A DNA stretch of 63,404 nucleotides, the filler included, from Sluysia triapertura (Eukaryota), in the NCBI GenBank assembly GCA_046118255.1. It is 5 parts of 5 records of this genome, joined end to end, with 100 filler letters (N's around TTAATTAATTAA, not from the genome) between each part and the next. Parts side by side here need not be neighbours in the genome. Positions count along the whole stretch, not along the records: positions 14,126 to 24,905 come from JBJNIA010193571.1; 4 more parts are not named here. One strand, 5' to 3'. The translations under genes were made by a program, and so were the position numbers. Shown piece by piece: positions 3,001 through 60,319 of the stretch; positions within the stretch are counted from its first letter, which is position 1, and each line of letters opens with the position of its first letter. A model generated the notes under the pieces. The model did no database searches and had not been told where the DNA came from. It worked only from the letters and a program-made list of their open reading frames with translations.

Positions 3001-3049
3001 ATCAGATTTGTTTATAATTTCAGATTTAACATTTTATGGCAAACTAAAA

Positions 3050-14931: not shown

Positions 14932-15980
14932 ATGGTCAGTTTAAAAATTAATCAAATCCGATGCCAACATTTAGAAAATCACCCAGTTCAGTTGCAAGAA
15001 ATTTATCATGATTTTATACGAATTAAATATAAAGATTTTGCTATTATTATAAGTAAAGTTCTAATTCATTTTGTCTACTATACTCCTTTAGAAAGCTATA
15101 TGAATTTACCAGAGCTCATTGTTGAAGCTATAGTTGATGTGTTTCGTGTAAGCGATGAAATGACGCAAGTGTATCGATACCTGTTGACTGTGAAAGGTAA
15201 ATTGAAAATTTTATATAACCAATTTGAATAGAAAAATCTAATGCATTCAAGTGCACTTTATCAAAGCTCCAACGTTTTGTGAATCCTGACATGAGTATTA
15301 GATTCGGTGAAGATTTCCAAGCTATTATTTTAGATTTACGTACGGACAAGTGCGATTTGAATGTCGAGGATGATTCCAGTGAAATGCCACGTTGCAAATC
15401 ATGTAAATACAAAGACATCGATGTAAAACTTCATTTAAGTAAATATGTTAATAAATGTAATTATCAAATGATGATAACGCATCATGATAAAGATGATGTA
15501 TACCTACTGTTATGTAACGAGTTTAGTTCTAAAGAGTTTTTAATTTACATATCTGAACTTAATTTTAACGTAAAAAAGCCAAAAAGATTTAAAAAGATTT
15601 CGAAGTCACTATCCAGAAATGTTGGATGTGCCTTAAATGCTGATTTTAAAACCAATTTATTAAATGAATTTGTGCAGACTTATTGTATGAGAGATTGTGA
15701 TGACAATTATGCAATCCAATTCATGCTGACGAGAACGACTGTAGTATCACCAAGTTTAAAAAATTTTGAAATTGGATATACTAAGTCTATACAATCTCAA
15801 GATATTAAACATGAGAATAAGAGTGAAGTTGAGGAAAACAAGGAAAAAGGATCGTATCTCTCTGCTGATACGTCATTTGATGTAAATAATGAATTTAAAT
15901 TTGTGTTATTTAGTTTCGGTCGTATTCTTCGTGTATGGTCGTTCGAGAGTAGTGTAAAGATTATAGTGTACCAATTATAG
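14932..15980 (+). CDS. Orphan two-exon gene, ~337 aa
   Basis: A 35-nt GT-AG intron (15197-15231) joins ORF 14932 and ORF 15279 in frame (..LTVKEKSNAF..); no family recognised. Confidence 0.65.
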
Positions 15981-17947
15981 TAAAACTTTCTGCATTATTT
16001 TCTATAGCCATACTTACAATAGAATTCGATTTTGGGATGGAGAATCTGGATGGTATTTTGCTACAACGTTTGTTCATGATAACTCTAACGGATTGATAAT
16101 AGATACATTTAAGACTTGTATTAATAAAACCTTAGCTTGTTATTACATTGACTTTTATTTTCAAAGTATTGATTTAAAACTTTTTAAGTGCCTTAAGCAC
16201 ATATCTTATAACAATAAATCAACGTATGATATAGATAAAGTAAAGACGATAAAATTTATTCGAAAAAAGAAAACCCCTACGCCCATAGTTGTTTATTATT
16301 AATTTATTTCAAGTGGAAAGTTAATTAATTATTAATTCACTCTATGTATCAAGTTAATCAAAGTTTAAGGAATTAAGCTTTTAAGTTACCGCTGTTAAGA
16401 ATTAACATTTTAGTATACGGTTGTCTTAAGCAAGATTTAGTAAGAAAAAGAAGTTTATACATTTAAGAATATTTTCTTCACGTAGAATTTTTTCTAGAAA
16501 TAAAACCCTGAAGCAACATCTTCTGCGTAACTAAATCTTTGACTTCAAGCGGACCCAAAAGATTATTTAAATCATATTTGCTTAAGTTTAAACAATTAAG
16601 AGAAAAATACCAGCACATCTTTAGCTTTTTTATATCTGAAAATATTGATTAAGTTATCGAATAATTATATAGTTGATTTATATTATATAACAATAATAGT
16701 AATAATAACAATAATAATCATAATGTGGTGACCAACCCAATAATTCAAACTTTTATAACATAATAAAACATCAAATTCACATTCAATAACGAAAATCATC
16801 AAATATCTACAAAAATTAATTCAAAATATTACAAACTTTATTATTACCTTCTCAAAGCATTTTTAATTCATAACTTTATAACATTAAAATTACATTCACG
16901 TTTAGACCATCAACGCACATTAAATTTTACTTAAAACATTTCAACCTATAATTCATAATATCAAATTACAATTACATTTAAAACCATCAATTTACAATTT
17001 GAAGTTCATTCAGAATATTATAATCCATAAGCTTACAACATCCAAACTTCACCTTCAGTCAAAACCATCAATCTATAATCTATAATTATCTAATAACATT
17101 AAAAGTACAATCACACCTTAAACTATCCAATTCTCATTTTAAAGGAATTCAAAACACTTTTAGTTCATAATTTTTAACATTTAATTGATGGCCAACCAAT
17201 TAATCTTAATAAACTCCAAATATATTAAAATCACATAATACGCATTTTTAAATCTATTTAAAACTAATCAAACATATCTAAAATCATATTCTTTAACAAC
17301 ATGTAACAATCTTGTAAAATTCATCACAACCGCTTTTATATCTTATTTCATTTCAGACCAACCAAAATAAACTTTTACTTTTCAAAATACTTCAAGCCTA
17401 CAATCTCATAACAAATAATACCATCAATTTACATTAAGCGATCCATCAAAAATATTTATTCGACACCTCATAACATCCAAACCACAATAACGTCTTAAGC
17501 CATTAAATTACATTAAATACATTAAAAAATCCAAAATATTTATCTCCAACAATTCAATCACAGTCACACTCGAAATTAATCAACAAATATCTCCAAAGTA
17601 AATTAAACACCATAAATCCACAAGTGGTACCATTAAATCTTAATATTCAAACATTACCATAACTCAAAAACACTAAGCAGCATTCAAAAAACATCGTAAA
17701 CATTTACACCTTAATACATCTTCAGCCAGAAACATCATTTCAGTTAAAACATTAGGTTTAATTATGCAAAGTTACTTAAAACCCCAAAAAAGTACTCAAG
17801 ATCTGTATGAAAAAGCGTCAGCACTTAAATCCATAAGGTTGCAAGTTCCTTTCGCTTTTATAATTTAGATATATTAAGAAATATTAAGAAAATCAAAGAA
17901 AGATCGTGTAAAAAATTGATATTTCTCAAGAATTTATGCATTTTTCA

Positions 17948-17949
<2 letters not shown>

Positions 17950-18018
<69 letters not shown>
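17950..18018. repeat. (AAT)n microsatellite inside a family A arm
   Basis: Perfect trinucleotide run. Confidence 0.95.
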
Positions 18019-18023
<5 letters not shown>

Positions 18024-18094
18024 CGTTATTATTATTATCACCATTTTTATATAATTAAATTAATTTAAATTAAAGCAGCTCAAAATCAACTGAG

Positions 18095-18290
18095 TTACCG
18101 CCATCATCAGTAATGACACTTTGCTTTACATTTACAATTCTGTGTCACTGTTGATTATGTTAGTCATCACATTTTGACGTCACTTTTCAAATCACAAAAA
18201 ATTAAACTTAACGATTATTGGCGGTCCAACCAAATCAGTAGTTGTGTTTAAACTCTCAAAATCATTTTTTGTTGGACAGCCAATCGTGAT
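18095..18290 (+). promoter_or_regulatory. Putative arm promoter: TCA-N-TGA palindromes plus ATTGG..CCAA(T) pairs
   Basis: GCCATCATCAGTAATGACAC, TGTCACTGTTGAT, ATTGGCGGTCCAA and TTGGACAGCCAAT; equivalents occur in other family A arms. Confidence 0.5.
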
Positions 18291-18425
18291 ACGGAAAATT
18301 TATCAACAAAAAATAACAATTGCTATTTCAACAAGCTTAAACGAGCGAATTTATATAAATCATCAATCTCATCAACAACTAGTTATTGTATAAAAATTAG
18401 ACTTACGAATTTAAAGAAAGAAATA

Positions 18426-19335
18426 ATGATGTTTAAGAAAGCGGTGACAGATTTTGATGTCGATTCTGTTATAGAGTATCCAAATAAATCTGAAGTTTGT
18501 CAAATATCACTTTTGTTCCAACTTGCACTAAATCAAGGAGTCAAAATCAAAATGGCAAGGTGCTTGTCATAATCCAAGATGTTACTTATCGACCCATTTC
18601 TTTACAGAAGCACGTTGCTCAACTTGAAGCTCAACTATTGACGAGAGATTTAAGAAGTGACAAAGAAATATTACAAACGTTACAAAACAGATTTTTGAAG
18701 CAGCGTAAAGTTACGAAATATTTCTCCGGCATCCATATTTTTAGTGAAAGTTTAACCGAAAATTTTCGAGATAGTGATAACTAAAATACACTTACAAGAA
18801 ATGGTCGTAATTTCGTCGTAAATTCCATCCTCGGCCTATAGAAACTTTAAATAATATTCTTGAGGTTTATAAAAATAATTCTGTGAAGTTAGATGAAGAA
18901 ATAGAAAGGATAGACCAAGAATCGGAGAACATTCGAATAAAAAACGTAATGCTCGATGATCGCAAACAGAAATACAATAATCACTACATCAATACTCACA
19001 AGGACCATGTTCTGCATACAAAATTTGTCCAACATCATGAATATTATAAATTAAGTGTCAAAAATGGCTATTATACCACCAATAAATATAGAGGTTGCAA
19101 TATCAAACGTAAATTCACTATTAAATATTCATGAAATGATACAAATGATAACAAAGAATGTATTTACAAAATTGAGTCTAATAATGTCAATGACCATAAA
19201 GTCAGAAGTAATAACTTTTATGCTAAATTTTGTTACAACAATGTTAATAATTGTAAAGGTACTGAGTTCAAATTTAATGACTATTTTATCCTAGGTGATG
19301 AAATTGAAGATGTTAAAGTAATAGCTTTCTTTTAT
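18426..19335 (+). pseudogene. Frameshifted orphan gene (cargo of the left arm)
   Basis: ATG at 18426 followed by consecutive overlapping ORFs 18497-18784, 18883-19134 and onward, on the same strand. Confidence 0.45.
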
Positions 19336-19773
19336 TTATTTGCCTTTATTGCAAACTTTAGTACCAATTGTTACATCAACTATCATCTTAATCGAAAACT
19401 TTACATGTATCCAGATATTGCTGTCTTGGTACAAGTTGTAACACGTCCTTGACCAACACCTTCCACATTTAATATCATTATTCATTAAAAAACGACTAGC
19501 TTCTTCATAGATCCTTCTAAACTCGCTTAAAACAACAGCAGAATACATCTCATAACTGGTCAAATCATCAGCCATTTTTGGTATTTCTTCTATCATCAAA
19601 ATAACATATGTTGTTCCATCTACAATTTCTTTATCTAGTAACTGCGTTAATTCTAACAAATTTTTTGTCATAACATGCTCGCTTTTCATTGTTATTTCCT
19701 CGACATTATCTACTAGCATTTTATCTAATGCAACTGGCCATAGATTGACTTTAAAAATATTTGAAATGATCAT
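19336..19773 (-). CDS. Orphan protein, 145 aa
   Basis: Open ORF with protein-like composition (CGRC motif); 3' end abuts the convergent gene. Confidence 0.55.
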   Translation of the reverse strand: MIISNIFKVNLWPVALDKMLVDNVEEITMKSEHVMTKNLLELTQLLDKEIVDGTTYVILMIEEIPKMADDLTSYEMYSAVVLSEFRRIYEEASRFLMNNDIKCGRCWSRTCYNLYQDSNIWIHVKFSIKMIVDVTIGTKVCNKGK

Positions 19774-20068
19774 ATAAACATTTGAGTTTCGCTCACTAAT
19801 GTAGTCTCTTTGGATGTTTATGAGCTGTTTTATATTTATTATCGAAGTTAAAATTAAAGTTCGATTTATTAAAAAGTGTGATATAATTGCAAATTTTAGT
19901 CTTAATTATTGTTACCGTATTTAAACTGAATTTATCAACTTTACATTGAATCATTGCTTTATTAAATCTATTACAAATATTTTTATACATAATGTAATTA
20001 AAATAACAATTAACACGTAAATAATAATTGATTTACACTGTAAAATTTAAACAGTAACAAATTCTGTT

Positions 20069-20615
20069 TTACGCTTGAACAAGAAAAATACAATCATCAT
20101 AATCTAAAAATAGTTGAAAAAGAGACTCGTAATTGTCAATGATAATTACACGAGTATTTGTAACAACTGGAATTGCATATCCGCCAAATGAAAGATTCAC
20201 TAGAACTCTTTGTTTTCTGATGTCACGAGCAATCCTGTAACATATTGTTATCAAAGAACGGTAGTTGTAACTCATTAAGTCCGTGAGCATACATGCATTG
20301 TTGACCATATTTAAAGCAGTGGCCAGTATCTGACGTACTGTATATACATTGTCAGGTTTTGTAATAACGTGAGTGACAGTTACGTTCCATATTTTTACTG
20401 TTTCTATGAACATACTGGCAATCATCTCCATTTGGAAAAAGTCCCGTGTATTTATCATATGAAGTACAATAAACATCATAATTGTAATTCAATGTATTAT
20501 CAATACTAGTTTCAAATGTTGTACTTTTCGATTCATTTAACAGCATGTTCCTCATTCGGTTCACTTGGTCTGACATAATCTGAGAACTATTTTTCAGGCT
20601 ATAATTTTTCTCCAT
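20069..20615 (-). pseudogene. Orphan gene with one frameshift (cargo of the right arm)
   Basis: Overlapping ORFs 20352-20615 and 20069-20479 directly inward of the right arm. Confidence 0.5.
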
Positions 20616-23600
20616 TATGATATGAGAAGTAGTAAAATTTATTAATTTAATTAAATCACTTTCTAAGACACAATTAATGTAATGATAGATGATATTGATG
20701 AAATATTCTAAACTTTAATTGTTTTACCTTTTATTCTCAATAGAGACAGTTTTTAATTATTACTTTCAGTGTTTATTTCTAAATATACTTTTTGAAAATT
20801 GTCTTTTACTATAATAATTTTGAAATAAAAACTTTTATTTTTACCTATTCAGCAATTTGTGTAACTGTTATTTTATAAAATTTTAATAACGAGTTTCAGA
20901 TTAAAATTAATTGTGACAGAAACAATATGCACATCTAATTGGCTGGCCAATTAGAGAGTAACTTATGCATTCCCGTGAAAATTTTAATTATCGAAATCTG
21001 TCAATAGTTGACAGTTAATAAATGAAATAATTTGTATAACTAAATCTGTCAATTATTGACAAAAAATATAATCCAAAATGACAATGAGATGATAAAAATA
21101 ATGGTGATGAAAATGATAATGATTCAATGTAGTAATGTGAAAAATAATAATTATTATTATAATGATAATAAAAATGGATTAAAATAATAATAAAATAATA
21201 ACAAAATAAATAATAAAATTATAAAGATATTAAAAACTCAAGTATTCTTTTCCTTCATAAATTTATCTTTCTTTAATATTAAAATTCTTTTCTTTTAATT
21301 CTTTTACTATTGTTTGAATAAAAAAGACAATATAAAGAGAATTCATGATGCAATATCAGAAATCTTATTGAAATAAACAAAATGTTTGTTGGAGGGAAAC
21401 GTAGTACATTGTTCTAAAATGAAAAAAGTATAAAAAGAAATTAATTAAGTTGGAGATGCTAAAAGAAATTCCATTTAAATTACTATTATGTTTTGAATTT
21501 TACTTACAAATTTTATGATTTGTGATGGAATAAAGGGTTAAGAAGTAAAGTTACAAGTTTTTGTGTATTATAATGTTGGCCACCACAGTTTCCACAAAAA
21601 TACTCACATTCAATGGATAATGAAGTTAAAACGTATGAAGACAATTTACGACCAATAATTGTTTTTAATTTTACATTCATCGATTTTTGTAAAACGATTT
21701 ATTTAATTATTATTAAGTCTTTATATTTTTAGGAGTTATCGCAGTGGCAGCATTAGTATTTAAAATAATAATAACTTTAAAAATGATAACAACACAATAA
21801 TAATAATAATAAATAGAATCTACAATATTAAATTTTATCTACCCATTACTTTGAGTAGATAAAATTTGACAAAAAATTAAAAACCAAAATTTAAAAAATA
21901 GCAATAAAAATAGTAATAATAATAACAATATACGTACAACCACTAATTGATTATGAAATTTATTTGTTTAATATTAATTCTATTAGCTCAGTTATCTGTT
22001 TAAAATTAAAAATTCGTTGAAAACAAAATTAATTGTCCAAAAACACTTAATGTTCAATTAGATTGCGACTTATCTAGAAAAACAAATAATGATCACTATA
22101 TTTTTCAAATATATTTTCGATAACTTATGCCTCGAAGTAGCATTTTATAAAACATGTCTTAAAAATAACTGATACTGCTTCTTGATATTAACAATGAGTT
22201 TACTATATCTCTTAAATACTCCTATGAATAATTTTTGCGTTTTGTGTTCCATCAATTATAGTAATTAAATGTAGATTATAAAATATGGTATCTGTGTCTG
22301 AAGCGCCGAATAAAACAATTATAATCTATATACATTTAGAGTATTTTTAAATAAATGGGGTGCTAAAAGTAACTACTGAATATTGAAGTTCAATATATTT
22401 AGAAATGCTCACAGTACAGCAGCAGAATTTTTATTAATTAAAATATGTTTTACTTAAATGCACTTATGATATTTGAATATGTTCTTTAAGATTATGAAGG
22501 TTCATTGGTGTTCAAATATCTCTGATTGAACAATCGATCTGTAATTTACTATTAAAACTGTGTACACATTGGCATTTAGAATGTCAGCATGTTCATTATG
22601 TTATGGTAGGCACGGATGTTATGCATTCACAAAGTGTTGTGCAAATATTGGGAATATATACGAAATTAAGGTTAAAATTATTTTTACATGGTATAAGTGT
22701 AATTTACATATTATTAACAATAGGTTATTCAAATTCTCGATTAAATCAGATGGAATCTTTGATTAATAGTCATTATTGGCCGTCCGCTCTTAACCATCAT
22801 AAAAATACGCACACACCGCACCAAAACTATTGAATCACCATAATTAATAATAAATAACTATCGTGTCTTAAATATGAGCTATATTTAAAAGAATTTGAAC
22901 TTGTCGTCCTATTCTGATATCTTATTGGAGTACGTCGTGATTAATATTATTTTCTAACAACTAATTATAACCAAAATTTATTATATTAAGAAAACTTATG
23001 TATTATATTTATAATATATTTTAGTTAGTATTGTATTTTATTTGTAGGCTTATTTACTTTATACATAATTTCATATTTACTTCATGTTTATTGAATTTTT
23101 TTATAATTTGATTACGCTCGTATCTACTGCAAAGTGCTAAAAAGCGCTTAAATTAAATTATTCACTGTAAATTTCTGAAACAGAAGGAGCTTTCCTTTTT
23201 TTAATATTTCATAATCTTCCAGTGATTTGGTATTATCTGGCAACTGATTGTATATTTTTGAGGCGTGTACGGTATCACTTAGCTTAATGTAAATTATTGT
23301 GTCAATGAAATATTTATGTTGGTTTCCAAATTTTTATTTTCTAAGAGATATTCGGGATTTCTGCAATCTGAGCAACTATAAATTATTGTCATGATTTTGA
23401 ATTCTATTCTGCTTTTATTAATAACCATAGTAATTTTTTATAAGATGTTACATGAAATCTTTTTTACTTGGAAAATTAGTCTTGATTATATATAAATTAA
23501 AATTAATTTTGAGTAATATCAATATTTGTAATAATATGAATATCTTATTACTTTTAAATTATGGGAAATAAACTTAAATTTCGAATTATCGAACATTAAA

Positions 23601-23972
23601 ATTATGTTAGGTAACTTCTACTTTGCATGAATTCTGTTGGTCAAAATGCTTTATTAGTCATCTCCTTGGAATAGTTTGTATACAAACTCCTATTATATCA
23701 GACTAGGAATAATTTCGGTCGATTTATAAGTTCTCGGCTAGTTGCTCAAGATAAATGATGATCAAGAAGATGATCGCATACACAGAGTTTCTGTAACGTA
23801 TCGCAGACATTATTATCATTAAGTCCATAATGTTTTATACATTGTTTTGGATTAGATACGTTGCATATTAATTATAAGTGATTGAGTCTAAAACCAGAGA
23901 ACGAGATTTATAAAATCAAAATACAATTCTGTACCTTAATTGATATATTTAAAGTGGATGTAAGATTGATAT

Positions 23973-24129
23973 TTTTGGGATAAAAAGGCCTAAAGTGCCA
24001 TTTGGTAAAATTGACTACATTAAAATGAAATTGTTAGACGGGATTGATATCTCAGTGGTAGAGCATCGAACTGCGCAGCTAGAGGTCCCGGGTTCGATCC
24101 CCGGTCAGTCCATTTTATGAAGTCTAACA
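23973..24129 (+). mobile_element. tRNA-carrying short element, copy 2, inserted in a gypsy remnant
   Basis: (T)TTTGGGAT...TGTTAGAC-tRNA core-TTTTATGAAGTCTAACA; TSD not resolved. Confidence 0.8.
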
Positions 24130-25932: not shown

Positions 25933-27000
25933 TGTGATGGCCAACTTTTTCATTCAAAATTAAAATTATTATTTTACATAAAATATCATATCTCCTAGCA
26001 TCTTACATTTTTCCTTTCAGATCCAGTAAAACCTTATTTTTATTTTTTTCAACAGTTTTAATTCACAACTTTGGAATATTAAACTTATATTTACAGTCAG
26101 ACAATAATGTACATTAAATTTCATTCAAAACATTTTAATCCACAATTTCATAATATTAGAATCACAATTCACATCTCAAATTATCAAATATACATTTAAC
26201 GTTTTAATCCAAAACATTTCAAGTTCACAATCCTTCAACACTCAATCATTAACATCAGCGAAAAACTTTGAAGCCATTTCAAAATCAAAATAACATTTCT
26301 TTAACTATGTATTATTTTCTTTAAACAATCATTTATCATCTCTTCCCACATTACATATCTTCGTAATCACTGAATAAAGTCATTTTAAAGAAAGAATTTT
26401 GCCTACAAGAATTTTATTAAGGTAATAGAAATAGAATTTATTTCAAAGAGAAAGTTAAATAAATAAAGTTTATGCATTTATAATTTTATATATTATCATT
26501 ATTATTATTATATTCACTTACTTTAATATAATTATTATTATTATGAAACCATCTTTATTATCTTTTATATCATTATTTATTATTATTATCATTATTGTTT
26601 GTTGTTAATACAGTCATTACTCGAATTAACAACTGTGACTGCTAACACATTTTATTTCATTGTCAGTCATCAGTGGACAGCTTAATTAAAGTTAATTCAA
26701 CATATTGTATTTACTGCCTACCGATGATAGACACTTATAGGAACAATACATTAGTTTCTACTCAATTTGTGGTTTGATTGGTCACCCAATCAAATTTTTG
26801 TTTTCTGGGTTTAAAAATATCTAATATTGCTAGATATAATGGACAATGATAGATACGCATTAATATAGAGCTTTACAGAATTTATTAGTTTAATAGTCAA
26901 CTATCAAAAAGAGATAGAGAAAAAATTTTTATTTTATCATTCAATTTAAAAATAACTTTTTAGATAAAAATTAAAAAATTTCGATTTTAGTGTGATGCCA
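25933..27000 (+). mobile_element. Family A arm
   Basis: TGTGATGGCCAAC start, C/A-rich ~78-bp degenerate repeats, TAAAGAAAGA, TAT-rich tract, and TTTGATTGGTCACCCAATCAAA palindrome near 26773; inner boundary approximate. Confidence 0.75.
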
Positions 27001-27019
27001 TCAATATTTCATTTATGCA

Positions 27020-27990
27020 ATGCAAAGAACTTAAAAGTAAAATGTAACAGAATAATGCAAGGCAATAATAGAATTGAATGTGACCAACAAATTGAATGGC
27101 TTGTTGAACGAAAATTAGATACATTTAATTTTAGAGAAATGCGACTATATCAATTTATTAAATAGATAAATAATAAAATAATTAGAAGTATTACAAAACC
27201 TAATAGATGAAAATAAAAGACTCATTATTATCGATGATATTCCATTAGATGATGAAGGTTATGATCATAATTATATGTTAATTAACTGTCAATCACTCAG
27301 AGGAAGATGATGGATCAATGTTATTAGTTGATAATCAAGTATTAATTGTAAATAGAAATTTTGCAAGAAAAATGATCAAGCTATTAATGATGAAACAACT
27401 GAATATACACACTGTCGGCAATAAATAATTTGACAACTTGTCTTAAAATATTGAAAACAAATTCATGCTCCAAAAGATCATCGTTTCATTTTACCAATAA
27501 AAATATAAACGAATTGAGTAAAATTAGTTTAATGTATTATCCAACAAATATCCCCCGTCACAATGATGAAAGTCACATCGATACAATCAATACTGCAGAA
27601 AATTATAACGCGTTTAGATCATTACAATGCCCATTCCAGTCCGACGAGTCGGGGGCATGTATTAAATTCGGATCCTCGTGTAAGTACTACTATTCTATTG
27701 ACCAAATTAGTTATATTGGAACTAATATATTTGTTTTCCACGAACATGTTCGGCGTATACAAAGTCTACTAAAAACCATCCTCGATTTCAGCAAAGCAAG
27801 TATTCCAATATGTAAAGAGAATTACAATGAACTCATCGGCGAGACTCAATCATTAGATGCTTAAACCACAGCAATTTTAAAGTAATCTTAATTTTTGATA
27901 TTCATTTAGTACTTAATATTTGTTTTTTGCATAATTCTAGGAGCCTGCAATCTATGAAACTGACGACGTGTTCCCGTGTAAGCATTCTGG
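27020..27990 (+). pseudogene. Degenerate orphan gene inward of the arm
   Basis: 144-aa ORF 27430-27864 with disrupted coding-like flanks. Confidence 0.4.

Positions 27991-31796: not shown

Positions 31797-31845
<49 letters not shown>
31797..31845. repeat. (AAT)n microsatellite
   Basis: Perfect run. Confidence 0.95.
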
Positions 31846-31846
<1 letters not shown>

Positions 31847-35452: not shown

Positions 35453-36323
35453 TGTAGTGGCCAACACTCATAATTCAAAATTAATTAAAATCTCATATTG
35501 GACATTCACAAATCAAAATTCACCCAAATTCAATTTTCAAAATAATCACACTTTTACTATCGAACTCCACCATCACAAACATCATAAAATAACATTCGAT
35601 ATTTATAACCTCATCAACTCACATATATCAACAATTTAACTAACATGTCAACCATCCATAGCATAAGAAACTTTGACATTTAACCTCAAATAATTTACAA
35701 CATTCATTAACCACATATTTCAACAAACAAATCACAATCACAATATAAAGTAAACAAACCTTAAATATACTAACATTATCAAACAACGCTAACAAGAACC
35801 TTAGAAATATAAATCATTTACAACAAAACCTTCAATCAACTACACCAACCTAAACCCACTTCACATACACATATTCATCGTTAATACTTACTAATAATAA
35901 CTTATTTTATAATCGCCATTCAAAATTAAAATAACTTCAACCTTTCATTAAGCATTTCACATCATTCTATTCAATACACAAATCTTGTTTTCAAACTATA
36001 AACCTTTAATAAGTTTCAATAAATTATTCTAACATTCTTCATTTCACTTACAACCCAAACCATTACATCTTTTAAAAACAAATTTAAGATAACTTTAAAG
36101 GTTTCATTATCATACTGTGAGGCAACAACTACAAATGATACATTATGCACTTACTTAGTGTTGTTCCTTCACAATATGACATCATTTCGTTCTTTTTATT
36201 TTTCATCTATATGTAAGAAAATGTTTTAAGAATATAAAGAAAAGATTATGTTAAAGGTTTTTTAAAGATTTATGCGAATTTTATTTAGTAATAATAATAA
36301 TAGCAATGTTATTGTTGTTGCTC

Positions 36324-36363
<40 letters not shown>

Positions 36364-36775
36364 CATTACACTATTACTGTTACTCATGGCTAAATACAAA
36401 AATAATTAAAAACTTAATCATCGCTGTTCAGACTGGTTGCTGCCATCACCAACGATGACAGCCTATGTACATTTTTCATTAGACTGTCAACGTTGATGAC
36501 TGTCATTAATTAGTCATTAGTTTTTACCGTCTCCATATTAATCCGTTTATCAAATAATATCCAATCAGAGTACAGCTCACTAAAAAATATTATGTTATAA
36601 CTTCACAATACTCTGATTGGATAGACAGAATTTGAAATTATAATGTAATAATTGGTTAGGCTAAAAAAAGAACAAACAATAGACAATTAAAATTTTTATG
36701 ATTCTCAATTAATTTTTTACCGGACAGTTAAAAATTCGTTTAGTCAATTTAAGAAAATTTTAGTTCAAGAGTAGA
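35453..36775 (+). mobile_element. Family A arm
   Basis: TGTAGTGGCCAAC start, C/A-rich arm, (TAT)n, GCCATCACCAACGATGACAG, CTGTCAACGTTGATGAC, and inverted ATCCAATCAGAGTA..TACTCTGATTGGAT. Confidence 0.75.
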
Positions 36776-36776
36776 A

Positions 36777-37700
36777 ATGATGAAAAAGGAATTACTTATG
36801 CAACGCGATAAAAATGAATTTTTGTAGTCTTACTATTACAATTGTCGCATGTTAGCGAAGAATATTCCGATATTAATCCTAAATGGTATCACCAAATAAT
36901 CAACATATTTGTAATAATTTTATGAGTAAAATTACATCCTCCTATGATTATCATGTACAACGCAAAGATATAATGAATTTCCAAAAAGAACGGATTACGA
37001 AGTTATATGATAACAGTTCGATTAATGATTCCAATTCTAACAACTCATTGTTCATATGGTGCCCCTGTGCTCAATGTAAAATTCGGATACAAGATGACTC
37101 GTTGGTAAAAATGATGTTTTCAGAACCATTTATCGCACAGTTGTGTTATAAAACATACGAATGACCATGATAAAGTGTTGGAAGATCAGACGATTAGCTA
37201 TACAAGTGCAAATGTAAAAATTTCAGATTTTCGAACAAATCACTCTACTGTCGACAGAAATTATGTTAATCCTTTTCACAGATTCGAATATCATGATTTA
37301 GTGAAAATGTTTATTCAAGCCACTAAACTGTTTATTGAAAGTTTACCGTCAATGGCTAATTCAATGAAAGTAGATTCTCAAAAGATGATCCATCAATTAA
37401 TTGAAAGAAAGTGTCAGTTTTATTCAAATTTTTTATGAACTCTCCTTTTCGATACAGTTTACTATCTTATGAACTGATACTATCTGTTCATGTTATTATC
37501 CAAAAACATCTTAATATTTGGTCCTTAAATGAATATATCGTGCCACCGATTAAGTTTATGTGTCCGATTATGTAAGTTTCGAATTTTTGTATCTAAATAA
37601 TTATTTTTTAGTCGTCATTCAATTATTTTGGATCGATGATATGCAACGACAGGGTCTTAAAAAATATCGCGTCGGAGTCTCATGGATGATTCTAATAGAT
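36777..37700 (+). pseudogene. Degenerate orphan gene inward of the arm
   Basis: Consecutive ORFs 36883-37164 (WCPCAQC) and 37175-37438. Confidence 0.45.
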
Positions 37701-38329
37701 AAATCAATTTTAAAATTTGGTGTAATTCGAAATTTTAATTATATAATAAATTTTCATTATATATCTTTTTTAATAACATTCCAACTTAATGGCACTATGT
37801 TTATAAAGATAACTTTAAACACGACAGATAAGGTTGAGAGAAACCTTAATAGACATTATAAGTCCTTACGTTCTCTTAATAAATTAAACAAAACTAGCAG
37901 GAGCTGTATGATAACTAAAATTAAACAACCTTTAAAATTAGAAAGAGATTTCGTAAGATTAAATGCAATACACTATGCACGTAAGAATTGTTCAATTGAG
38001 CTAGAATTTGTTTTAGAGACAGCACTTAAAGAAATAAAAACATCACCCAATTACATTCATTGTATAACAAATTTAGGTTTTAAATTGGATGTTTCTAATA
38101 AAATTAAGCCCTCAAGGAGAGTCAAACTCGAACAATTACTTAAATTCTTTTTAAAATACAATTTTACAATACATAACACTAATAATACCTCCATAATTAC
38201 GATAAGATTATCTCGAAAATGTGAAAAATAAGTTCTTTTGGCAAAATATGAAACAAATTCATCAAACATAATTCAATTTTCACAGAAGTTATTCCGGTTT
38301 TGAACATTATTAATAATTCATTATATAGT

Positions 38330-38760
38330 CTAAAATATCCGTCAGGTGAAAAAGTATTCGTTGAATTACCTCACCTGAAGCATCTATCAAATATAACAAA
38401 CTTATCAAAATTGATTGAAAAAGCAGTTTTACAACAATTATCGAAGTTTTTTTAGATTAAAATAAGCTTCGCATAATGTATCAGTTTCACAGCTATATTA
38501 AGATATTAAATTATTATATTTTAAATGGCTTTAATGTGGTGTTATAAGATGTGTCTGCTGCTTTGACGCAGTAGATCATGACATTACTTTGTGACCTCCA
38601 AAGTTGCTTATTTATTACACTAAAACAGTTTGAATCATACTTAAAAGAAAGAAATAATATGTTTTACTAAAAAATATGAAACTCTTAGGGATCAATACTT
38701 GGTGTATTATTGTATTAACATAGAAAATATTATTCAACAGAAAAGCTAAATTGAAAAACT
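38330..38760 (+). pseudogene. CR1/L2/Jockey-type reverse transcriptase remnant
   Basis: LSNITNLSKLIEKAVLQQL, D(V)SAA-FDAVDHDI and GSILG motifs, with frameshifts. Confidence 0.65.
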
Positions 38761-39169: not shown

Positions 39170-40085
39170 AGTTATTAAAAGATTCTGTAGTAAAACTATG
39201 TTCAAGTAGACCTGATGAACCGATTATATTTTTAAGAGGATATTTTCCCAATTTAGAATGCAAACCTGATAACCAAAATAGTAGTGAATTAATAAAATTT
39301 GACGATGAAATAAAAGGTGTTGTACATTTTCACATAATGAGCTATAATGGAAATTATAGAGTTCACATGCAATGTTGATGATTGTGGCAGTGTTTGTCAT
39401 TCCTCGAAACATCAAAATACAAAAGATCGACGAGGGGCTGTAAGTGATGAAGTAACTACTGAAGAGGATGTATCCATCTTACGTAAAAAAAGTTGTACCT
39501 AAAGATTACATTACGATGGGTGCATTATCAAAAGTAATTGAAAAGAATGTTTTATTTGCATATTTGAATGAAAAAGAAAGAAGTGATATATTTGATGCTA
39601 TGTTTCCAGTACATAAAAAAGAAGGTGATATTATTATTGAGCAAAGTGAGAATGGTGATAACTTTTACATTATTTATCATGGTGAAGTTCACGTTTTCGT
39701 AAATGACGAATACGTCAGTGTCATTAGTGAAGCTGGTAGCTTTGGTGATTTGGCATTAATATACAGTACACCACGTGATACAACTATGAAAGCGTTAACA
39801 GATGTAAAGTTATGGGGTATGGATCGACACTCGTATCGACGAATTTTGTTGGGAAAATTGTATACAGAGTTTCAATCCTAGAGGAATTCGACAAATGGGA
39901 ACAATGTATTGCGGCAGCTACTTTAGAACCTATAAGTTTTAAAAATGGAGATTATGTGTTGAAGCAAGGAGAACCTGGGGAATATTTCTTTATTATTATT
40001 AAGGTTGCAGCTAAAGTCTTTCAGAAACCATCTGATTCTGAATCTGAAAAAGAAGTTGGCATTTTAGGTGCTTCAGATTATTTCG
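39170..40085 (+). pseudogene. PRKAR1: PKA type I regulatory subunit, frameshifted and truncated copy
   Basis: LLKDSVVKLCSSRPDEP (D/D domain), RRGAVS pseudosubstrate, [14 protein letters not shown] cassette and second CNB domain up to SDYF; frameshifts near 39475 and 39865. Confidence 0.85.
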
Positions 40086-40547
40086 AACCAAACGAAGAAG
40101 AAATTGCTTATTCCCATCATCAAGGAATTGTCTTTAATTCATTAAGCTCGGATATATGTTATAAAATGGCTCTTTGCCCATATACAACAATGAAAGATGG
40201 AAGATGTACAAGATTTGGCCTACAAGTGTAAATACCTACATTCCATCAATGAATTAGATGATATTGATGTCGACCCAACAGTCCGAGATGATCACTACAA
40301 CAGAATAACACACTTGATTGCAGATGTCAGTACTAAAGAGGATGAGGCCACAACCTACAGTTCTACAATGCCACGATTAGGCTTGGATCTGCTCCATAAT
40401 AACAAAGTAACTATTCATTGTGATTACGTAAAAACCGATTTAATTTCATTTGTTTATTTAGACAGTGAAACATGGTCCCCAGCAAGTCGAGTCCAAAATT
40501 TAATTGCTGATAATATAAATATTCTTAACTGTAGTATAAAAAATTAA
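40086..40547 (+). CDS. Unrelated orphan coding sequence fused to the PKA RI copy
   Basis: The reading frame continues past SDYF into non-PKA sequence, then into the 116-aa ORF 40197-40547. Confidence 0.4.
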
Positions 40548-42529: not shown

Positions 42530-43800
42530 TTAATTTAAAACTTTTCTTCTATGCACATCAAGTAGCCTCGTCAATAATGGAACGTCGAAAATAAAATAAG
42601 AAAATAAACTATAGATCGAATGAATAAAAAAATTAATTACATTATAAAACAGGATCTCGTTATGTCGCGTTGGGCTTACTTCTGTTAATTTCTTTTGGAT
42701 CAAGTGACGTTCGGTTAGGTTATGTACATCATCTGGGTTGCACAATTATCACTATAATTGAGCACTATCGTCGCCAACACAATTATCACCATTATGAAGA
42801 TACTGTAAGGCTTGTAAAATCAACGGTATCGTATCTTGATCTTGATGGGATATACAATACATACATTTAATTTTATTTAGTTTATCTCTACAATTATTTT
42901 TGAATAAACTAATTTCTGATTGGATAAAAGCAGCTGTTGTATCATGCTTGGATAATTTTTGTATTACTTTTGCACAAATGTTATGTAATCCACCAGTTGT
43001 AATACCACCACCACCACCACTACTACTACTAATGCAACCATTTATAAAACAATCACCAATAGCATCACCATAATCAGCAATTTTATTCAATTTATCTTTT
43101 TTTGACATTTTATAAACACTATTTTTCTTGTAAAGCAGAGAATTTTGTAAATCTAATACATTTAGATCATCTTTGAAAAATCGATACTTTGATAATGTTT
43201 AATTAATTTTTTGACTTTTACTGAAATAGTTGGGTTGACTAGTACATCTTCGGAATTTCAAATAATCATCAGATTTGTCCGCTACATTTGTCAAATGGTT
43301 ACCATATTCTGTAGAAATAATTGGTGTACTTTTAGTCAATTCAGTACAATGAGTAATTAAATTACATGATGGTTTTAATTTTCCCGAACCTTTTTTTAAT
43401 TTGAATTTTTAATTGTTGTTGCCACTACTAGGAGCTCCCTTTACTAATCGCGTTAATTTACTTTTTAATTTACTTTTTTTAATTCGTGGTACTGAAATCA
43501 ATGCTGAATTAGTTTCCATAGTATTAGAACTAGATGACGATGTGGATATGGTTGTAGCTCTATGGTATAAACCATTTGTGGCGTTTGTAGAATTGAAATC
43601 TAAAGTTGGTAAATGAAGAATCGACAGTGATCGAAGTCGATTATGTAATGACATGGATGCTGCTTGATCAGTTGTATTCATTGTGTTAATATTAGTCTTT
43701 ATGTATGACAAACGTATGACCACTTCCACTTGGATAATTGTGCTGAAATTCTGAAATGTAAGGATTATTTGTACTCATCATAGATTTTTTTGATGGTTTA
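42530..43800 (-). pseudogene. Frameshifted orphan gene inward of arm 44638
   Basis: Chain of ORFs 43409-43729, 42752-43108 and 42530-42745; Ser/Gly-rich. Confidence 0.5.
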
Positions 43801-43849
43801 AAATACAAAATAATTTAGACAGTAGAAAAATCATGTAGTTTTTCATACA

Positions 43850-44638
43850 TTTTGTTTGGCGTTAGATATACTTTTTAATCTTAAAAACTTTAATTTTTAA
43901 TAATAATAAAATTTTGTGTACAGCATTAACCTGATTAGGCGTCCAATCAGGAAACGTAAAAATTAATGATCAGTATAACACTGATTGGACGACAAATATT
44001 AAAGATTATATACAGAATGATTAAAAGAGGAGCCACCATCAATGTTGAGATGAATTTATATACAGTAATCAAGAATTTCAGAATTACATAAAATTAATGA
44101 AGGTTAATATTAATAATATTAACAATAATGTTGTTATTATTACCAATATTAATTAAAAATAAAATATTTAAAGTGCTTAAATTCTTTGTAAAGATCTATA
44201 CATGAGCTTTCTTTAATAATCTTTAATTTCTTAACACATTGAAAATTAGAGACAAAGAAAGAATGTGATATTTTATGATTACCTACAACTCTTTATTGTT
44301 AAAATAGCATTACCAGTTTAAATGTTATCGAAATGTATTTGATTAGGGCCTAAATACCTTGAAATATTATTGTAGTGTTGTTCTGTAACGAGAGGTACCT
44401 TACTTTGAATACTTTTTAATGTAGTTTTATAATTTAAAGTGTTATTATAGTTTATATGTTCTGGAACTGCGGATGTAATTGACTTTAATAGATGAATTGT
44501 TTTGATGAACGTAATAAATGTGATATTGCTAAAATGTTAAAGAGTATGATTTTATGTAGAATGTGTTGATTTGATAAATTTTGTAATGTTATATAAAAAG
44601 AAGGTGAATTTTTTAAAATTGAAAGGTTGACCACCACA
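43850..44638 (-). mobile_element. Family A arm
   Basis: Ends GGTTGACCACCACA; G/T-rich on the + strand; CTGATTAGGCGTCCAATCAG at ~43931; purine block homologous to 17870-17940. Confidence 0.75.
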
Positions 44639-47099
44639 CTAAATCTTTGCTTCGGTAGGGATTTTATAGTTGAAACTATAAAAATTAAAATGGTAAAAAC
44701 AAAATAGTAAAAATTAATAGTAAAAACAAAATAAATTCTTTAACAATTTATATTAATCACTTAATAAGGTACAATTGAGATTATATATATAAAATGAAAT
44801 AAGTAGATTACGTAGAATTAATTTTAATTCTCGAAATAATGATTCATCAATGATTTTACGTGAAATCTATTATAAGATTTCGGAAATGATGATAGAAAGT
44901 TAATTTACGTTTATTTTTCGAGGATATAATAAACTAACATAATAAACTACCGCATTTTTTTGTTTAAGGAGAAATTCAGTAAAAATTTAATTTTCTTAGT
45001 AGGAATTTTCTTTAGTCTTCAGAAGTTTGGCTCCTGTTTTGCTTCGACAAAAAGTATTTATAAGAATTGGTCAACAAAATTTGTTTTAACAGAAAAATTG
45101 CGTTTTGTTAAATTTTAAAACAAAATATTTATTTTATTTATTAAAACAAAAATGACTTAAAAATATTTAAATGTAAGAATTGTGTAGAATAAAAGGAAAA
45201 ACTTATTGTGAGTTCACCGGCGTACTGGACTTACCTGTTAGGGCCAGACGTTGGATTTTTGGAATAAAGATTGGATTTTAACGTAAAATGAATGGAAGTT
45301 ATATAAATTTTATGTTAATTGCCTAGCTATCAAAGAAAACACCGAATAATTAGTATTTTAATGAGGTTCTAAACCGAACCATAGATTTTAACTATAATGA
45401 ATTTGATCAGGTTCTGAAACTGAACCTTTTGAATTAATTCTTTTAAAGTTGATGAACCTGTAGAATTTACTAAAAGACTAAATAAAATTAAAATCAAAAT
45501 AATTTTTATTAGATAAAAAAATATATACAATTATAATAATAAATAAAAATGGTTGACAGGGATTAATTTAAAATTAATTAATCCTAACTTTATATTTTAA
45601 TAATATAATAAATCGCGTGAGAAGTTGACGTTGATTCAAAGAATACGGATAATGTCAAAAATTAGCAACCGAGTTTTAAAACGCAGATTGAAAAACGATA
45701 ACGTTTAACTGATGTTTTTATTTGCGTCTGTAGGCTTTCAATTTTATTAATTATATAGCAAAGAAATGACCTTGATGTTACAATAATTTAAACAATAGAA
45801 ATTTAATAATAAATATTATATTCCCTTGACTAATTGTTCATTTTATATTAAATTAAATATTAAAAATTAATTAAATATTAAAAATATTCAAAAATACTCA
45901 CTTATTTGTTTCTACAAATTTATCCATATAATTAAAACATTTATTTGAACATAAATTAAATACAGATTAAATATTTAGCCTGAATAAACTTTAGAGTTTA
46001 TTATAAATTTTTATAAACTTTAGCCTGACATAAATATAAATTTAATTATAATATTAAAGTTTTAATTAATAAAATTACTTACATTAGTTTAAACCCAAAA
46101 TTAATTTTTAAATCCAAAATTATTAGACCAAAATTAAAATTATAAATCAATAAAAATTATATAATACAAAATTTAATCAATAACAATAATACGAAATGTT
46201 CAATAAAATATTTGGTAATGTTGATTTTAATTGAATGTTTATGTTTAGGTTTTGATCTTGTTTTAAGAAATTTTCTAAGTTTAGAAAAGGATTATTCTTT
46301 AATTTATTCAATAGGTAGTTTAAATTATCTTTGACAAATAATTCACAATTTGAAATGACTTTATAAAATACGTTAAACAAGATATAAAATAATTTAACTA
46401 CAAAATATTTATTATAAAATTGACGATTTATACTTAGTATTTAGACATTTACTTCTGCATAAATCCATTAGAGTACAATCTGTTTCGTTATCTAAAAAAA
46501 TTTAGAAAAATGATAATTATTATTTAAAATTACATTAAATATTACTTTATTGGATTTTACATTAAGATCATTGATTGAGACTTGTCGAAACATGGTGTTT
46601 ATACTTTTATAAAGTTCAATGATTTTGCTGTCACTCATAGTATGTACATATTTACATCTATTGCCATACTTTAAGAAAACTCCTGATTCGTTTAAAGAAA
46701 AAGGACTTAAGGCGATGTCACTGTATTGAAGAGAAAAGATATCAATTTTGTAATTTTTTTGTGAAGAATTAATTTACATTTATTGTCAGTGACATCGAAT
46801 GGTTTGATCATTTTAAAATCTTTATTCTTTGTATTTAAAAAAATTGATCAGAGTACTTGTCTTTGTTATGATCTAGGATCGAACTATTAAACACTTTATA
46901 ATGTTTAAATAAGTTGTTAAAATAAATATTTTTATAAAACTTTAAATAATAAATAAACGGTAGCCTAACTAAAGTTTTATCATGATCTTGTTTATGTACT
47001 AAGTAACTCACCGATAGTTTCGTTACGTCTTTATGATCGGCTTGATAGTGTACGTTGCGGCTCGTAGGTAGTTTGACCAAACCTTTTTCTTCTTATCGT

Positions 47100-48218
47100 T
47101 CATATGTTAAGTAATACGTCGATAGTTGAATTACTTTTTTATGAACGGTTTGATAATGCAAATAACGATTCGTAAATAGTTCGCTCGACTCATTATCATC
47201 GTCTTGGTTATGCAGATTATGATAATCAAGTACTAAGCTGTTGATTATTCGCAATTTATTAAAATGATTGGAGATTAAAATTAAAAATGTGGATAATAAT
47301 AATAAATGTTATTATTATTATTAATAGAGACCTTAACATAAACTTACTTTTATAATCTTATATAATTCTTAATATATAAGTTATAAAAGCAATTGAATCT
47401 TACATACTTATGGATTTGGAGTGTTGACGCTTTTTCATATACATGTTAAATGCTGTTCTAAGGTGGTTTTTAAATATATGCTTGGTGTTTTGAGGTATGA
47501 TTGTGGTTATGATCCTGCATGATAATGTGTCGAAAGTTTACAATGAATTTTTAGATACTAACGAGCGTTTTTAACTAAAGATGAGTATTGAAAGTTATAA
47601 TTTAATTGTTTTGAAATAACATGAATGCTTAGAATGAATGATAAATATACATTGGAGTTTTGAATAAGATTAATGTTTAGTTGTTAGGATTGTGACTGAA
47701 AACTGTGTTGAAAAGAGTGTAGTTTAGTGTATTAAAAGGAGATAAGTTATAATCTAGCTTTTAATATGTTCTAAGGCGATCATAGAATGTTAAAAATATG
47801 ATTTATTTTCTTGATATATTTGAGTAATATTGTCTCCTATGCTGTTTGGGATTAAATGACCATGGATCATGAATTTAGAATGTTTAGGTTGCTTTGAAGT
47901 GATGAATAAAATATTTTGATAAATTTTTTAATATAAACTGATGGTTTTGAATGTCATTGTGATTTGTTTGTTATGAGATTGTGGATATGAATTAATTTTA
48001 ACGGGTGAAAATTTTTAGTGGATATAAAGGAGATAAATATGGGTATGTTAAAATGTTAGAGAATGTGGTTTTATATAGAATATGTTGGTTTAATTTGGTA
48101 TTGTTTTATGTTGGTTATTAGACTTAAATTGTAGCTTTTGAGGGTGTACGTGATTTAGTTACATTAAAGAGAACAGATTTTGATAAAATTTATTAATAGT
48201 TAAAGGTTGGCCATCACA
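47100..48218 (-). mobile_element. Family A arm
   Basis: Ends GGTTGGCCATCACA; reverse complement contains TATGAAAAAGCGTCA.CAC..AAATCCATAAG, shared with 17806-17838. Confidence 0.75.
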
Positions 48219-56683: not shown

Positions 56684-57982
56684 TTATAACAGTTTTATAG
56701 TGGTGGTGTTAGATTTTAAAATTTTCATTATAAATTCATTTAAATTTACTAGCATTATTTTCATTCTTATGTTAGGACAATTTCTTATTATCTGATATTC
56801 TTTACAAATTGTTAATTTATTGTTGTTACGTTCGTGCTTAAGGCACTTCAAATTCTTTATACTAAGCTGTTGAGGGCGATAGAAATAATAAAAAGTTACA
56901 GTAATTTTATTAACATAAAATTTGAATACATCTACAAATGTTTTCATACAAAATAAGGTTTTGTTAAAAGGAAGAACCTTATGTGGATAAGATCTTCTTC
57001 CGTGCAAGTAAACTCCGTTACACTGTTTTCCGTACGTACCACAACAATCCGACCATAATACCACACGATAGACTGCTATTGCTACATCTTCTCCAACATC
57101 ACATAACTCTTTACTCTGATATCTTTTAAAGTTATTCAGTTTATCTAATAATAAAAAGTGAAGTAAACAATGATCAATTGTCGGCAATAATGCGACACGA
57201 TAAGCTACTACTAATACGTCTTTTACAACATTACATAAACCTTTACTATCATATCTTTTATAATTATTCAGTTCATCTAATAATAAAAAGTGAAGCAAAC
57301 AATGATCAAGTGTCGGCGATAATGCGACACGATAAACTACTATTACTAAGTCTCCTCGATTCTGGACATCGTCGATTACACGGACTAATTCTGAAACAGT
57401 TTTAATTCGAAAAATCATGTACAGAAAAACTACACCAGCTGAGTAAATGTCGATTATAAAATTGTATGATGAACTGTTACCACGAGAACTTGCAACTTCA
57501 TGAGCCATGTGGACATCGGTACCAACACCTCTCGACATCTTGCCAAGTGATTGGTTTAAATTGATGCATTCTGTAACCAAACCAAAATCTCCTATTTTCA
57601 ATTTAACTTTTTCAATTACATCGTTATCGTATGAAAAGACAATTCGTTTTGTATTGGAACTCCTTGATTTTTTAAATTTATCATCGAAACATCGAACTGG
57701 TTTAAATTGATCCATGTTGTAACGAGTTAATTTCTTATTTTCTGAAACCGTAAGTTGATTCATTTCAGTCAAATTGTTAACAGAAGAATGATTAAATTCA
57801 TGATTTTGAGACTGTGTCTTGGAAATTAAATTTGGATTTCTTGTTGCTAATGAAATGGTACCAACTTTAACACTTCCAGAATTAGTATTAATTTCATTTG
57901 TAAATTCCATGAATTTCGAATAACGTTCAACACAAAAATGATCACAAAAGTTGACGGATAACAAGCGATTAAAAATTTTCAA
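56684..57982 (-). CDS. Pseudokinase: eIF2-alpha-kinase-like C-lobe, 44-aa tandem repeats and a Polo-box-like segment
   Basis: KIGDFGLVT, GVGT..MAHE, YN..IDIYSAGVVFLYM and TVSEL motifs; no Gly-loop, VAIK or HRD; 132-bp internal duplication. Confidence 0.7.
   Translation of the reverse strand: MKIFNRLLSVNFCDHFCVERYSKFMEFTNEINTNSGSVKVGTISLATRNPNLISKTQSQNHEFNHSSVNNLTEMNQLTVSENKKLTRYNMDQFKPVRCFDDKFKKSRSSNTKRIVFSYDNDVIEKVKLKIGDFGLVTECINLNQSLGKMSRGVGTDVHMAHEVASSRGNSSSYNFIIDIYSAGVVFLYMIFRIKTVSELVRVIDDVQNRGDLVIVVYRVALSPTLDHCLLHFLLLDELNNYKRYDSKGLCNVVKDVLVVAYRVALLPTIDHCLLHFLLLDKLNNFKRYQSKELCDVGEDVAIAVYRVVLWSDCCGTYGKQCNGVYLHGRRSYPHKVLPFNKTLFCMKTFVDVFKFYVNKITVTFYYFYRPQQLSIKNLKCLKHERNNNKLTICKEYQIIRNCPNIRMKIMLVNLNEFIMKILKSNTTTIKLL
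57040..57352 (-). repeat. 132-bp in-frame tandem repeat (~2.3 copies)
   Basis: YRVAL.PT.DHCLLHFLLLD.LNN.KRY repeated. Confidence 0.9.
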
Positions 57983-57999
57983 TTTGAAAACTCAAAGTC

Positions 58000-58311
58000 A
58001 GGTGAATTGATATCGAGGAATGAATTTTTAAAATTTTTTGTTATTGAAACAAATTGAAAATAATAATAAAAATAATAAAGTAATAAAAATTAATAATAGT
58101 AAAATAAAATAATAATAAAATAAAATAATAATAAAATAAAATAATAATAATAATAAAATCAATAATAGGCGTTTATGATTTGTCGGGGATAAAGTATGAT
58201 AATGCAGATATTGCAGATGTGTTTTATTTCGATGTAATTTTTATTTGTGATGAGGTTTATGTGGTTGATGGTGAATGAGATGTATGTTATATATTGAAGC
58301 GTGACACCACA
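58000..58311 (-). mobile_element. Family B-related arm
   Basis: Ends GCGTGACACCACA (reverse complement TGTGGTGTCACGC); skewed arm shares TTATCATA(A)CTTT(T)ATC with the 48773 arm; AAT/AAAAT tract precedes the kinase ORF. Confidence 0.55.
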
Positions 58312-59199
58312 TTAACATTGGAATTGAACGTATACATAATTAAACTGTTAAACTTCTACTTAACTTTTTAAATTAAACATGTTTTTGAATAAATTAAATT
58401 TCAAAATTTTTTATTAGTATTTTTATATTACAATTATAAAACTATAGCTTATTCATTTGTACTATTTGTTATTAATAATTTATCGAAAATCCAATTATAA
58501 TCAATAATATTATTTTATAGCTAATTCAAATCAATATTAAATGATCTTCAATTAATAATTGTTTTCTTTTCCAGAATAATAAGCTGGTATTTATAATATG
58601 CTTTTATTAAATGTTACTGTTCTTACACACTATTGTTCGCTGATATTATTCTGTGTCCTGTAATTTTTTCAATACCATTCTATAATAATTTCTATAATAA
58701 ATTCTAGAGTAGTAATAATAATTAAATGTGCTCACAATAGTTTTGTAATTTGTGGTCGATTTTATTTTATGTTATTGCTCTGATCTTATAATCCATTTAC
58801 ATTCGCTTTGATTTGCTAACTGATGTTTATTTTCTATTTATATTATACCAGCGACAGATACTTTTGTGGATCAATCTGTGGATTTTATTGTGTTGAATTA
58901 AGGTGATTTAATTTATTGTACACAAAAATTATTAAATTGAAAGCATTTGTTATTAAAATATGAACTTGAAAATTACGATTAAGTTTCATTGTTATCTTCA
59001 TGAAATAATAAATTTTAGACTTGTTACAATAAAATAATAAGTGATACAAAAAAATAATTTTATTTATACTAATTAAACTAAAAGTTTTTGAATTGATACT
59101 GATTATCTCCTGAATAGGTCTTTTACTTCGTAGTACACATTTCACTAAATAAATAAAAGGATAGAGTTAATATTTTAAAAATATTTTAAATTTACTTTT

Positions 59200-60310: not shown

Positions 60311-60319
60311 TTAACAAAT

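Follow-up and report, generated by a model that had tools for sequence, protein, structure and literature searches.

In the 63,404-nucleotide stretch of the Sluysia triapertura genome analysed here (assembly GCA_046118255.1; hereafter the window), the interval 16724..21587 is bounded by two short inverted termini and contains two long arms and three regions resembling open reading frames (ORFs). The left terminus, TGTGGTGACCAAC (16724..16736, + strand), is of the TGTNR type and its flank ends in ATAA; the right terminus, TGTGGTGGCCAAC (21575..21587, − strand), is followed by a flank beginning with GTTT. The two ends span 4864 bp and form an inverted match of 12/13 bp that fades after about 20 nt, bearing out the terminal inverted repeat (TIR) reported in a first-pass annotation of this DNA. 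The window as a whole has a GC content of about 24%, is eukaryotic, and carries N gaps, tRNA-headed short interspersed nuclear elements (SINEs) and host exons.

The left arm (arm A) starts with a C-rich, G-poor body (16737..17949, + strand; skew −0.71 over 300 nt) of degenerate repeats of about 85 nt (self-match of 141-275 with 226-356 at 68%), which has many diverged relatives in one public run, X1. It continues with a (TAA)23 run (17950..18018, + strand), at the place where other arms have an AAT/ATT-rich run, and with a promoter-like block (18217..18358, + strand) containing ATTGG-N4-CCAAT palindromes at 18217 and 18271 (one mismatch each) and TATATAA at about 18352; from its sequence, this block is a putative promoter. 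The right arm (arm B; 20616..21574, − strand) contains an exact ATTGG-N4-CCAAT at 20938-20951, TGACAG/CTGTCA sites, an AAT-rich run (21143-21224) and a short C-rich head.

The first-pass annotation counted three orphan genes between the arms; three ORF-like regions are indeed present, but two of the three are identifiable fragments of host genes. Gene 2 (19336..19791, − strand; ORF 19336-19905, first Met 19773) is an intronless, stop-free fragment of the chaperonin TCP-1 alpha (CCT1), covering residues ~17-177 (PDB E 3.2e-15, Pfam 2e-6). It forms an open stretch of 145 codons, of which about 54 are identical to the mammalian protein when counted from the alignment, and it shows in-frame gaps (one of 11 residues) and an altered nucleotide-binding motif. 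When neutral decay was simulated with substitutions only, the frame stayed stop-free in 26/1000 runs with 30% of residues changed and in 3/1000 with 45% changed. Gene 3 (20100..20615, − strand) is an intronless fragment of the RNA-binding Unkempt CCCH zinc finger, matched over ~20229-20504 (zf-CCCH_UNK, Pfam 1e-14; PDB 5elh, E 2.4e-26) and interrupted by three in-frame TGA stops; a search of a large protein set, at near lengths only, gave four candidates, none significant.

Gene 1 (18426..19452, + strand) is a broken ORF whose pieces lie in three different frames and contain stops. It has no match in Pfam, in viral contigs or among the other ORFs of the window; one piece each was compared with PDB sequences and with the ESM Atlas, again without a match, and its AlphaFold model is unusable (predicted local distance difference test score, pLDDT, 39.9). 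The proposal that genes 1 and 2 converge without a spacer does not hold, since no + frame stop ends at 19335 and the last frame of gene 1, open to 19452, overlaps gene 2 by 117 nt. The TCP-1 alpha match of gene 2 is cut off at about 19356, some 20 nt from the point where the two genes meet, and for this reason the tight ambisense packing looks, from the sequence, more like a truncation junction.

The arms belong to a family that recurs across the window. The terminal motif TGTRRTGRYCAAC has seven matches at ≤2 mismatches, against 0.2 expected; chance was assessed with this search, the later refined pattern having been derived from the matches themselves and being unfit for that purpose. The matches lie at 16724 (A), 25933 (C) and 35453 (D) on the + strand and at 21587 (B), 44638 (E), 48218 (F) and 61587 (H) on the − strand, while a weaker eighth arm, G, at 58312 (− strand), was chosen by eye and falls below the profile cut. 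All seven clear arms begin with TGTGG, TGTGA or TGTAG, that is TGTNR, and in all seven a C-rich, G-poor strand (skew −0.38 to −0.88) precedes an AAT/ATT-rich run. The layout of a module is therefore a TGTNR 13-mer, a C-rich strand, an AT-rich triplet run, a palindrome in five of the eight arms, and intronless ORFs. The palindrome ATTGG-N4-CCAAT, at ≤1 mismatch, occurs 11 times in the window against 2.2 expected (0/100 shuffles reach 11), and eight of these copies fall in arms A, B, C, E and H, with none in D, F or G. The earlier idea of a mobile element whose promoter-like arms face inward is supported.

The lengths given earlier for the two arms of the interval, about 1.7 and 1.0 kb, are upheld; that these arms are related is not borne out by alignment. 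Arm A can be aligned to C, D, E, F and H (z 7.6-13.7); its local alignment to B is insignificant (z 1.9), and it does not align with G either (z 0.4). The head of arm B goes unrecognised by a leave-one-out profile built from the remaining arms (60/60 shuffles score as high); its pre-microsatellite block (1/60) and promoter part (0/60) are recognised, but with marginal scores. The kinship of arm B, marginal beyond the terminus, rests on the terminal 13-mer, the strand skew, the AAT run and the promoter palindrome.

Further cargo lies behind the other arms. Searched against 583 ORFs, the finger of gene 3 finds those at 27403 (E 1e-4), 59206 (2e-4) and 46495 (1e-3), so that an Unkempt-like finger lies behind four arms (B, C, F and H). 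Module C (25933..27864, + strand) has a palindrome at 26777 and a CCCH-bearing ORF at 27403-27864; module F (46495..48218, − strand) has a CCCH-like ORF at 46495-46773; and module H (59206..61587, − strand) has palindromes at 60696 and 60730 and a CCCH-like ORF at 59206-59457. Arm D is followed by intronless ORFs (35453..38450, + strand), and arm E, with palindromes at 43934 and 43984, also has ORFs (42533..44638, − strand). The weaker arm G (56684..58312, − strand), with TGTGGTG, a short skewed head and an AAT run, precedes a stop-free ORF of 435 codons (56684-57991) that contains a kinase fragment by Pfam and has no PDB match at E ≤1e-5. It may be eIF2-alpha-kinase-like. It contains an internal tandem duplication of 132 nt at 57055-57353.

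A further copy, of PKA-RI, starts at a scaffold gap (39172..40547, + strand); it is intronless and frameshifted and runs into a CCCH-like finger ORF, giving a chimeric, retro-like gene. The PKA-RI part follows its orthologues colinearly from the dimerisation domain to within the second cAMP domain and leaves no space for introns. It shares 68% identity with trematode orthologues, which among themselves are 97-99% identical over this stretch; neodermatan flatworms (trematodes, cestodes) are the best among 33 named matches chosen from 120, and the host of the element is accordingly likely to be a parasitic flatworm. The finger at its end is split by the frameshift and resembles gene 3 weakly (E 0.17 and 0.42) and the ORF of module H at 1.6e-4. 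The identified cargo of the family includes TCP-1 alpha, Unkempt, PKA-RI and the kinase fragment. Stop-free frames of at least 150 codons number 11 in the window, against none in 40 block shuffles; by inspection, three of them belong to host exons or to a gag-like fragment and eight to arm cassettes.

The flanks of the interval were described in the first-pass annotation as lacking a target-site duplication (TSD), and this is upheld: no exact direct repeat of 4-12 nt lies within 6 nt of either end and no TSD is found at 2-10 nt, ATAA and GTTT agreeing at one position in four. A duplication of Mutator size is likewise absent (identities 2/8, 3/9 and 5/10), and none of the 14 possible +/− arm pairs in the window has an exact TSD at 4-10 nt. 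The earlier description of a complete unit needs correction, the DNA directly left of 16724 being itself repeated. There, an intronless, frameshifted ORF block (14932..16302, + strand), repeated in X1, is separated from arm A by a spacer (16303..16723). The spacer is not unique host DNA, since it has several diverged relatives in X1. X1, a set of contigs, is the one public run found to contain the stretch; no RNA data set was listed, which says nothing about expression. Contig cover from this run was taken over 15000-17930 (2494 contigs at ≥80% identity); the summed depth, which is not a copy number, is 283-10320 for arm A, 774-8927 for the upstream ORFs and 138-426 for the spacer, against 20.4 for the contig that matches exactly. 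As many as 67 distinct contigs have one variant in common, so arm A and the DNA to its left are clearly repeated. Within the upstream block, ORF 15228-15977 has no match in database searches, viral contigs included (structure model pLDDT 30). The 3' piece of the block, ORF 15967-16302, resembles the tail of ORF 56684-57991 (40% identity over 42 aa).

Taken together, these data are on balance in favour of reading the 4.86 kb as two modules of an abundant repeat family, each an arm with its cargo, joined tail to tail and perhaps lying within a larger composite; the interval has likely never been mobile as a unit bounded by these two ends, and it is probably neither a virus nor a self-contained unit. 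Fused modules, or a larger composite, are favoured because of the missing TSD, the non-aligning arms, the repeated left flank and the order of ORF block, spacer, same-strand arm and further ORF, which is seen three times (upstream block to A, F to E, H to G); the fallback of the first-pass annotation, two single-arm units meeting tail to tail, has become the preferred reading. The truncation of TCP-1 alpha at the junction also speaks for it. Convergence is seen in only two of the seven adjacent arm pairs (A/B, and D/E with a gap between them), and arm C has no clear partner before the host MAU2-like exons.

Several points weigh against this reading. Single modules showed no common 3' end, and an integrase requires two ends; the interval between the termini is arm or cargo throughout, with no host DNA, and these last two points favour a single element. 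A TSD may have disappeared through decay or through an adjacent deletion, and partner arms may be hidden because five N gaps break the window. X1 may itself be the source sample of the window. No integrase, reverse transcriptase or transposase linked to the family was found by Pfam among 104 ORF pieces (24 + 80) of the window. Because genes 1 and 3 are broken, selection on the cargo, if any, is past, and the decay simulation of gene 2 presumes a host TCP-1 alpha at least 55-65% identical to the human protein, a figure that we assume. The host genes presumably have introns in the cargo regions, as their vertebrate counterparts do.

The best-surviving alternative, which we hold only tentatively, is one discrete non-autonomous DNA transposon of the Pack type, with Ginger-like ends and two unequal arms. 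Two convergent arms would then be the normal form of the family, the unpaired arms being nested, truncated or split by gaps. Besides the need of an integrase for two ends and the lack of host DNA inside, the 12/13-bp TIR, with TGTNR at both ends, and the convergence of D and E speak for it, and pairing arm C with an end at 31875 would give flanks ATAA/GTAA, agreeing at three positions in four. That end is doubtful, its score being no better than background and no promoter palindrome or long ORF lying behind it; the absence of a TSD, the failure of arms A and B to align and the repetition of the left flank also count against a discrete element. As an observation on its own, TGTGGTGAAAAAC at 31797-31875, with a TTA run directly after it on the − strand, is possibly a collapsed arm.

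Under the preferred reading of two fused modules, either neighbouring modules would have been brought together by deletion or recombination, or the interval would be the right part of a composite starting further left. TGTNR is the terminal pattern of Gypsy long terminal repeats (LTRs) and of Ginger transposons, as described in PMC2836005, and because the ends follow it the 13-mer may be where an integrase of the Gypsy/Ginger type, supplied in trans, cuts. The arm would act as promoter for the cargo; the latter may have entered as reverse-transcribed host mRNA, an RNA step suggested by its intronless and fused state, as in LTR retroposition. The Unkempt-derived finger could have been captured once and then amplified with the family, and selection may have kept some cargo frames open before the present copies decayed. 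The best reading of the family is then a putative non-autonomous element with Gypsy/Ginger-type ends that captures fragments derived from host mRNAs. A bolder and rather doubtful extension would see in it an undescribed, high-copy flatworm element built from arm-promoter modules that are interchangeable and have integrase-type ends, which turns host mRNAs into a selected gene repertoire of its own (a diverged family of RNA-binding fingers derived from Unkempt and fused to new partners such as PKA-RI, truncated CCT1 and kinase decoys), whose modules recombine into one- or multi-armed composites, and which resembles a virus with accessory genes but has no capsid or integrase of its own.

It is improbable that the arms are LTRs, or 5' parts of LTRs, of a non-autonomous or giant Gypsy-type retroelement, with A derived from a + strand element, B from a − strand element, and the cargo from LTR-mediated retrocopies. 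The TGTNR sequences at the 5' ends of the arms, the same-strand pairs F to E (67% over 202 nt) and H to G, and a 13-mer resembling an inverse end at 18159-18171 would fit this idea, as would the intronless, chimeric cargo, a state described for LTR retroposition (PMC5131818), and the giant Gypsy elements with accessory ORFs described in planarians (PMC6431247). The 3' ends that such LTRs would have were not located. Nevertheless, no polypurine tract precedes any of the eight arms (longest purine run 2-6 nt), no TGG primer site is seen between TATA and ATG in arm A (by eye, in this arm only), the same-strand arm pairs are very unequal in length and sequence (H/G z 2.0), another ORF follows each "second LTR", and neither reverse transcriptase nor integrase is linked; the arms are not classed as LTRs because there is no polypurine tract and no good direct LTR pair. 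Finally, it is very improbable that a piece of an ambisense DNA virus (densovirus-, bidnavirus- or PIVE-like), or of a segmented virus that had captured genes, became integrated here: convergent genes between inverted ends, several ORFs without identified relatives and the parvovirus-like TIR elements and densovirus NS1 described in flatworm genomes (PMC3198968, PMC13055364) would agree with it, but Pfam finds no NS1, helicase, capsid or PolB family in the 104 ORF pieces, the identifiable cargo is host-derived, and all three proteins tried lack a relative in viral contigs, in a search that reaches close relatives only. The densovirus analogy of the first-pass annotation, which had itself recognised no NS1, capsid, PolB or transposase motif, is left unsupported by these results.

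Among known systems, Ginger1 and Ginger2 are similar in the TGTNR at all seven clear arms and in size, 4864 bp lying within the 2.6-7 kb given for Ginger; they differ in a TIR of 40-270 bp, against 12/13 bp here, and in a TSD of 4-5 bp, against ATAA/GTTT (1/4) and no integrase in the window (PMC2836005). The account used for this comparison names no flatworm host, neither Schistosoma nor Schmidtea being mentioned in it. Pack-MULEs and animal Pack-TIRs, including Ssk-FB4, are likewise described as non-autonomous and multicopy, with long promoter-bearing arms and captured, chimeric host fragments (PMC8277862, PMC6446971). The present family differs from them in lacking an 8-11 bp TSD and near-identical arms, in having TGTNR ends, in its intronless cargo and in the recurrence of one finger across diverged modules. 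The Mutator analogy proposed earlier is apt for behaviour, that is for long arms and captured fragments, but fails for the TSD of 8-11 bp and the near-identical long TIRs (PMC6446971). LTR-mediated retrocopies share intronless, multi-gene, chimeric cargo near Gypsy-type ends (PMC5131818), and the planarian Burro Gypsy elements share host-like accessory domains in a flatworm element (PMC6431247); conversely, the present arms have no polypurine tract, evident primer-binding site, near-identical direct LTR pair or linked gag-pol. Densoviruses and the planarian PIVE-PEVE elements also carry genes between inverted ends (PMC3198968), but here Pfam finds no NS1/Rep or capsid family and the identifiable cargo is host-derived; for the capsid this negative is tempered by gene 1, which has neither a match nor a usable model. 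On present tests, the family behaves like a Pack element whose ends are of the Gypsy/Ginger type, and it belongs to none of the groups compared. No description of the arm family was found in the open literature searched, so that an earlier entry in a repeat library such as Repbase is possible.

Gene capture by TIR-type elements is little described in animals, and the main survey, of 370 animal Pack-TIRs, set intronless copies aside (PMC8277862). If a family combines Gypsy/Ginger-type ends and promoters of its own with cargo that is chimeric, RNA-derived and in part selected, it would form a bridge between Pack-TIRs and LTR retroposition. Many lineage-specific "orphan" genes and unclassified repeats of parasitic flatworms could then stem from it; for context, 21.6% of one fluke genome, not of the source species, is reported as unclassified repeat (PMC9565688). 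For annotators, a warning follows that such ORFs are decayed cargo and not viral genes.

Other features of the window may be mentioned briefly. In the 900 nt upstream of the eight arms there is no common segment apart from AT-rich matches. A direct repeat of about 65 nt flanks module F (46147-46210 and 48270-48332), too long and too far out for a TSD. At the end of the arm D cassette, 38380-38600 contains short pieces that we take to resemble reverse-transcriptase motifs of CR1/L2 long interspersed nuclear elements, with no tool match. Exons of the host gene for the cohesin loader MAU2/Scc4, identified by Pfam, lie at 33527-34588, in GC-rich DNA between arms C and D. Two long intronless ORFs without a visible arm are possibly further cargo: 48983-50827 contains tetratricopeptide repeats (TPR; 310 aa) and has a weak match to NASP (E 0.004), and 53419-54084, with ORF 53422-54084 (221 aa), has no match in viral contigs. 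The segment 24309-24848, presumably a gag-like fragment although it has no Pfam match, is related to 3313-3444 at 48%. Copies of tRNA-derived SINEs lie at 6826-6966, 23971-24138, 41456-41524, 41834-41893 and 51807-51959, and Rfam finds only two tRNA-like SINE heads in the window, at 24041-24112 and 51833-51904. Two further dispersed repeat families are present, one at 8019-8288 and 28454-28733, the other at 4571-4899, 40654-40853 and 53207-53337.

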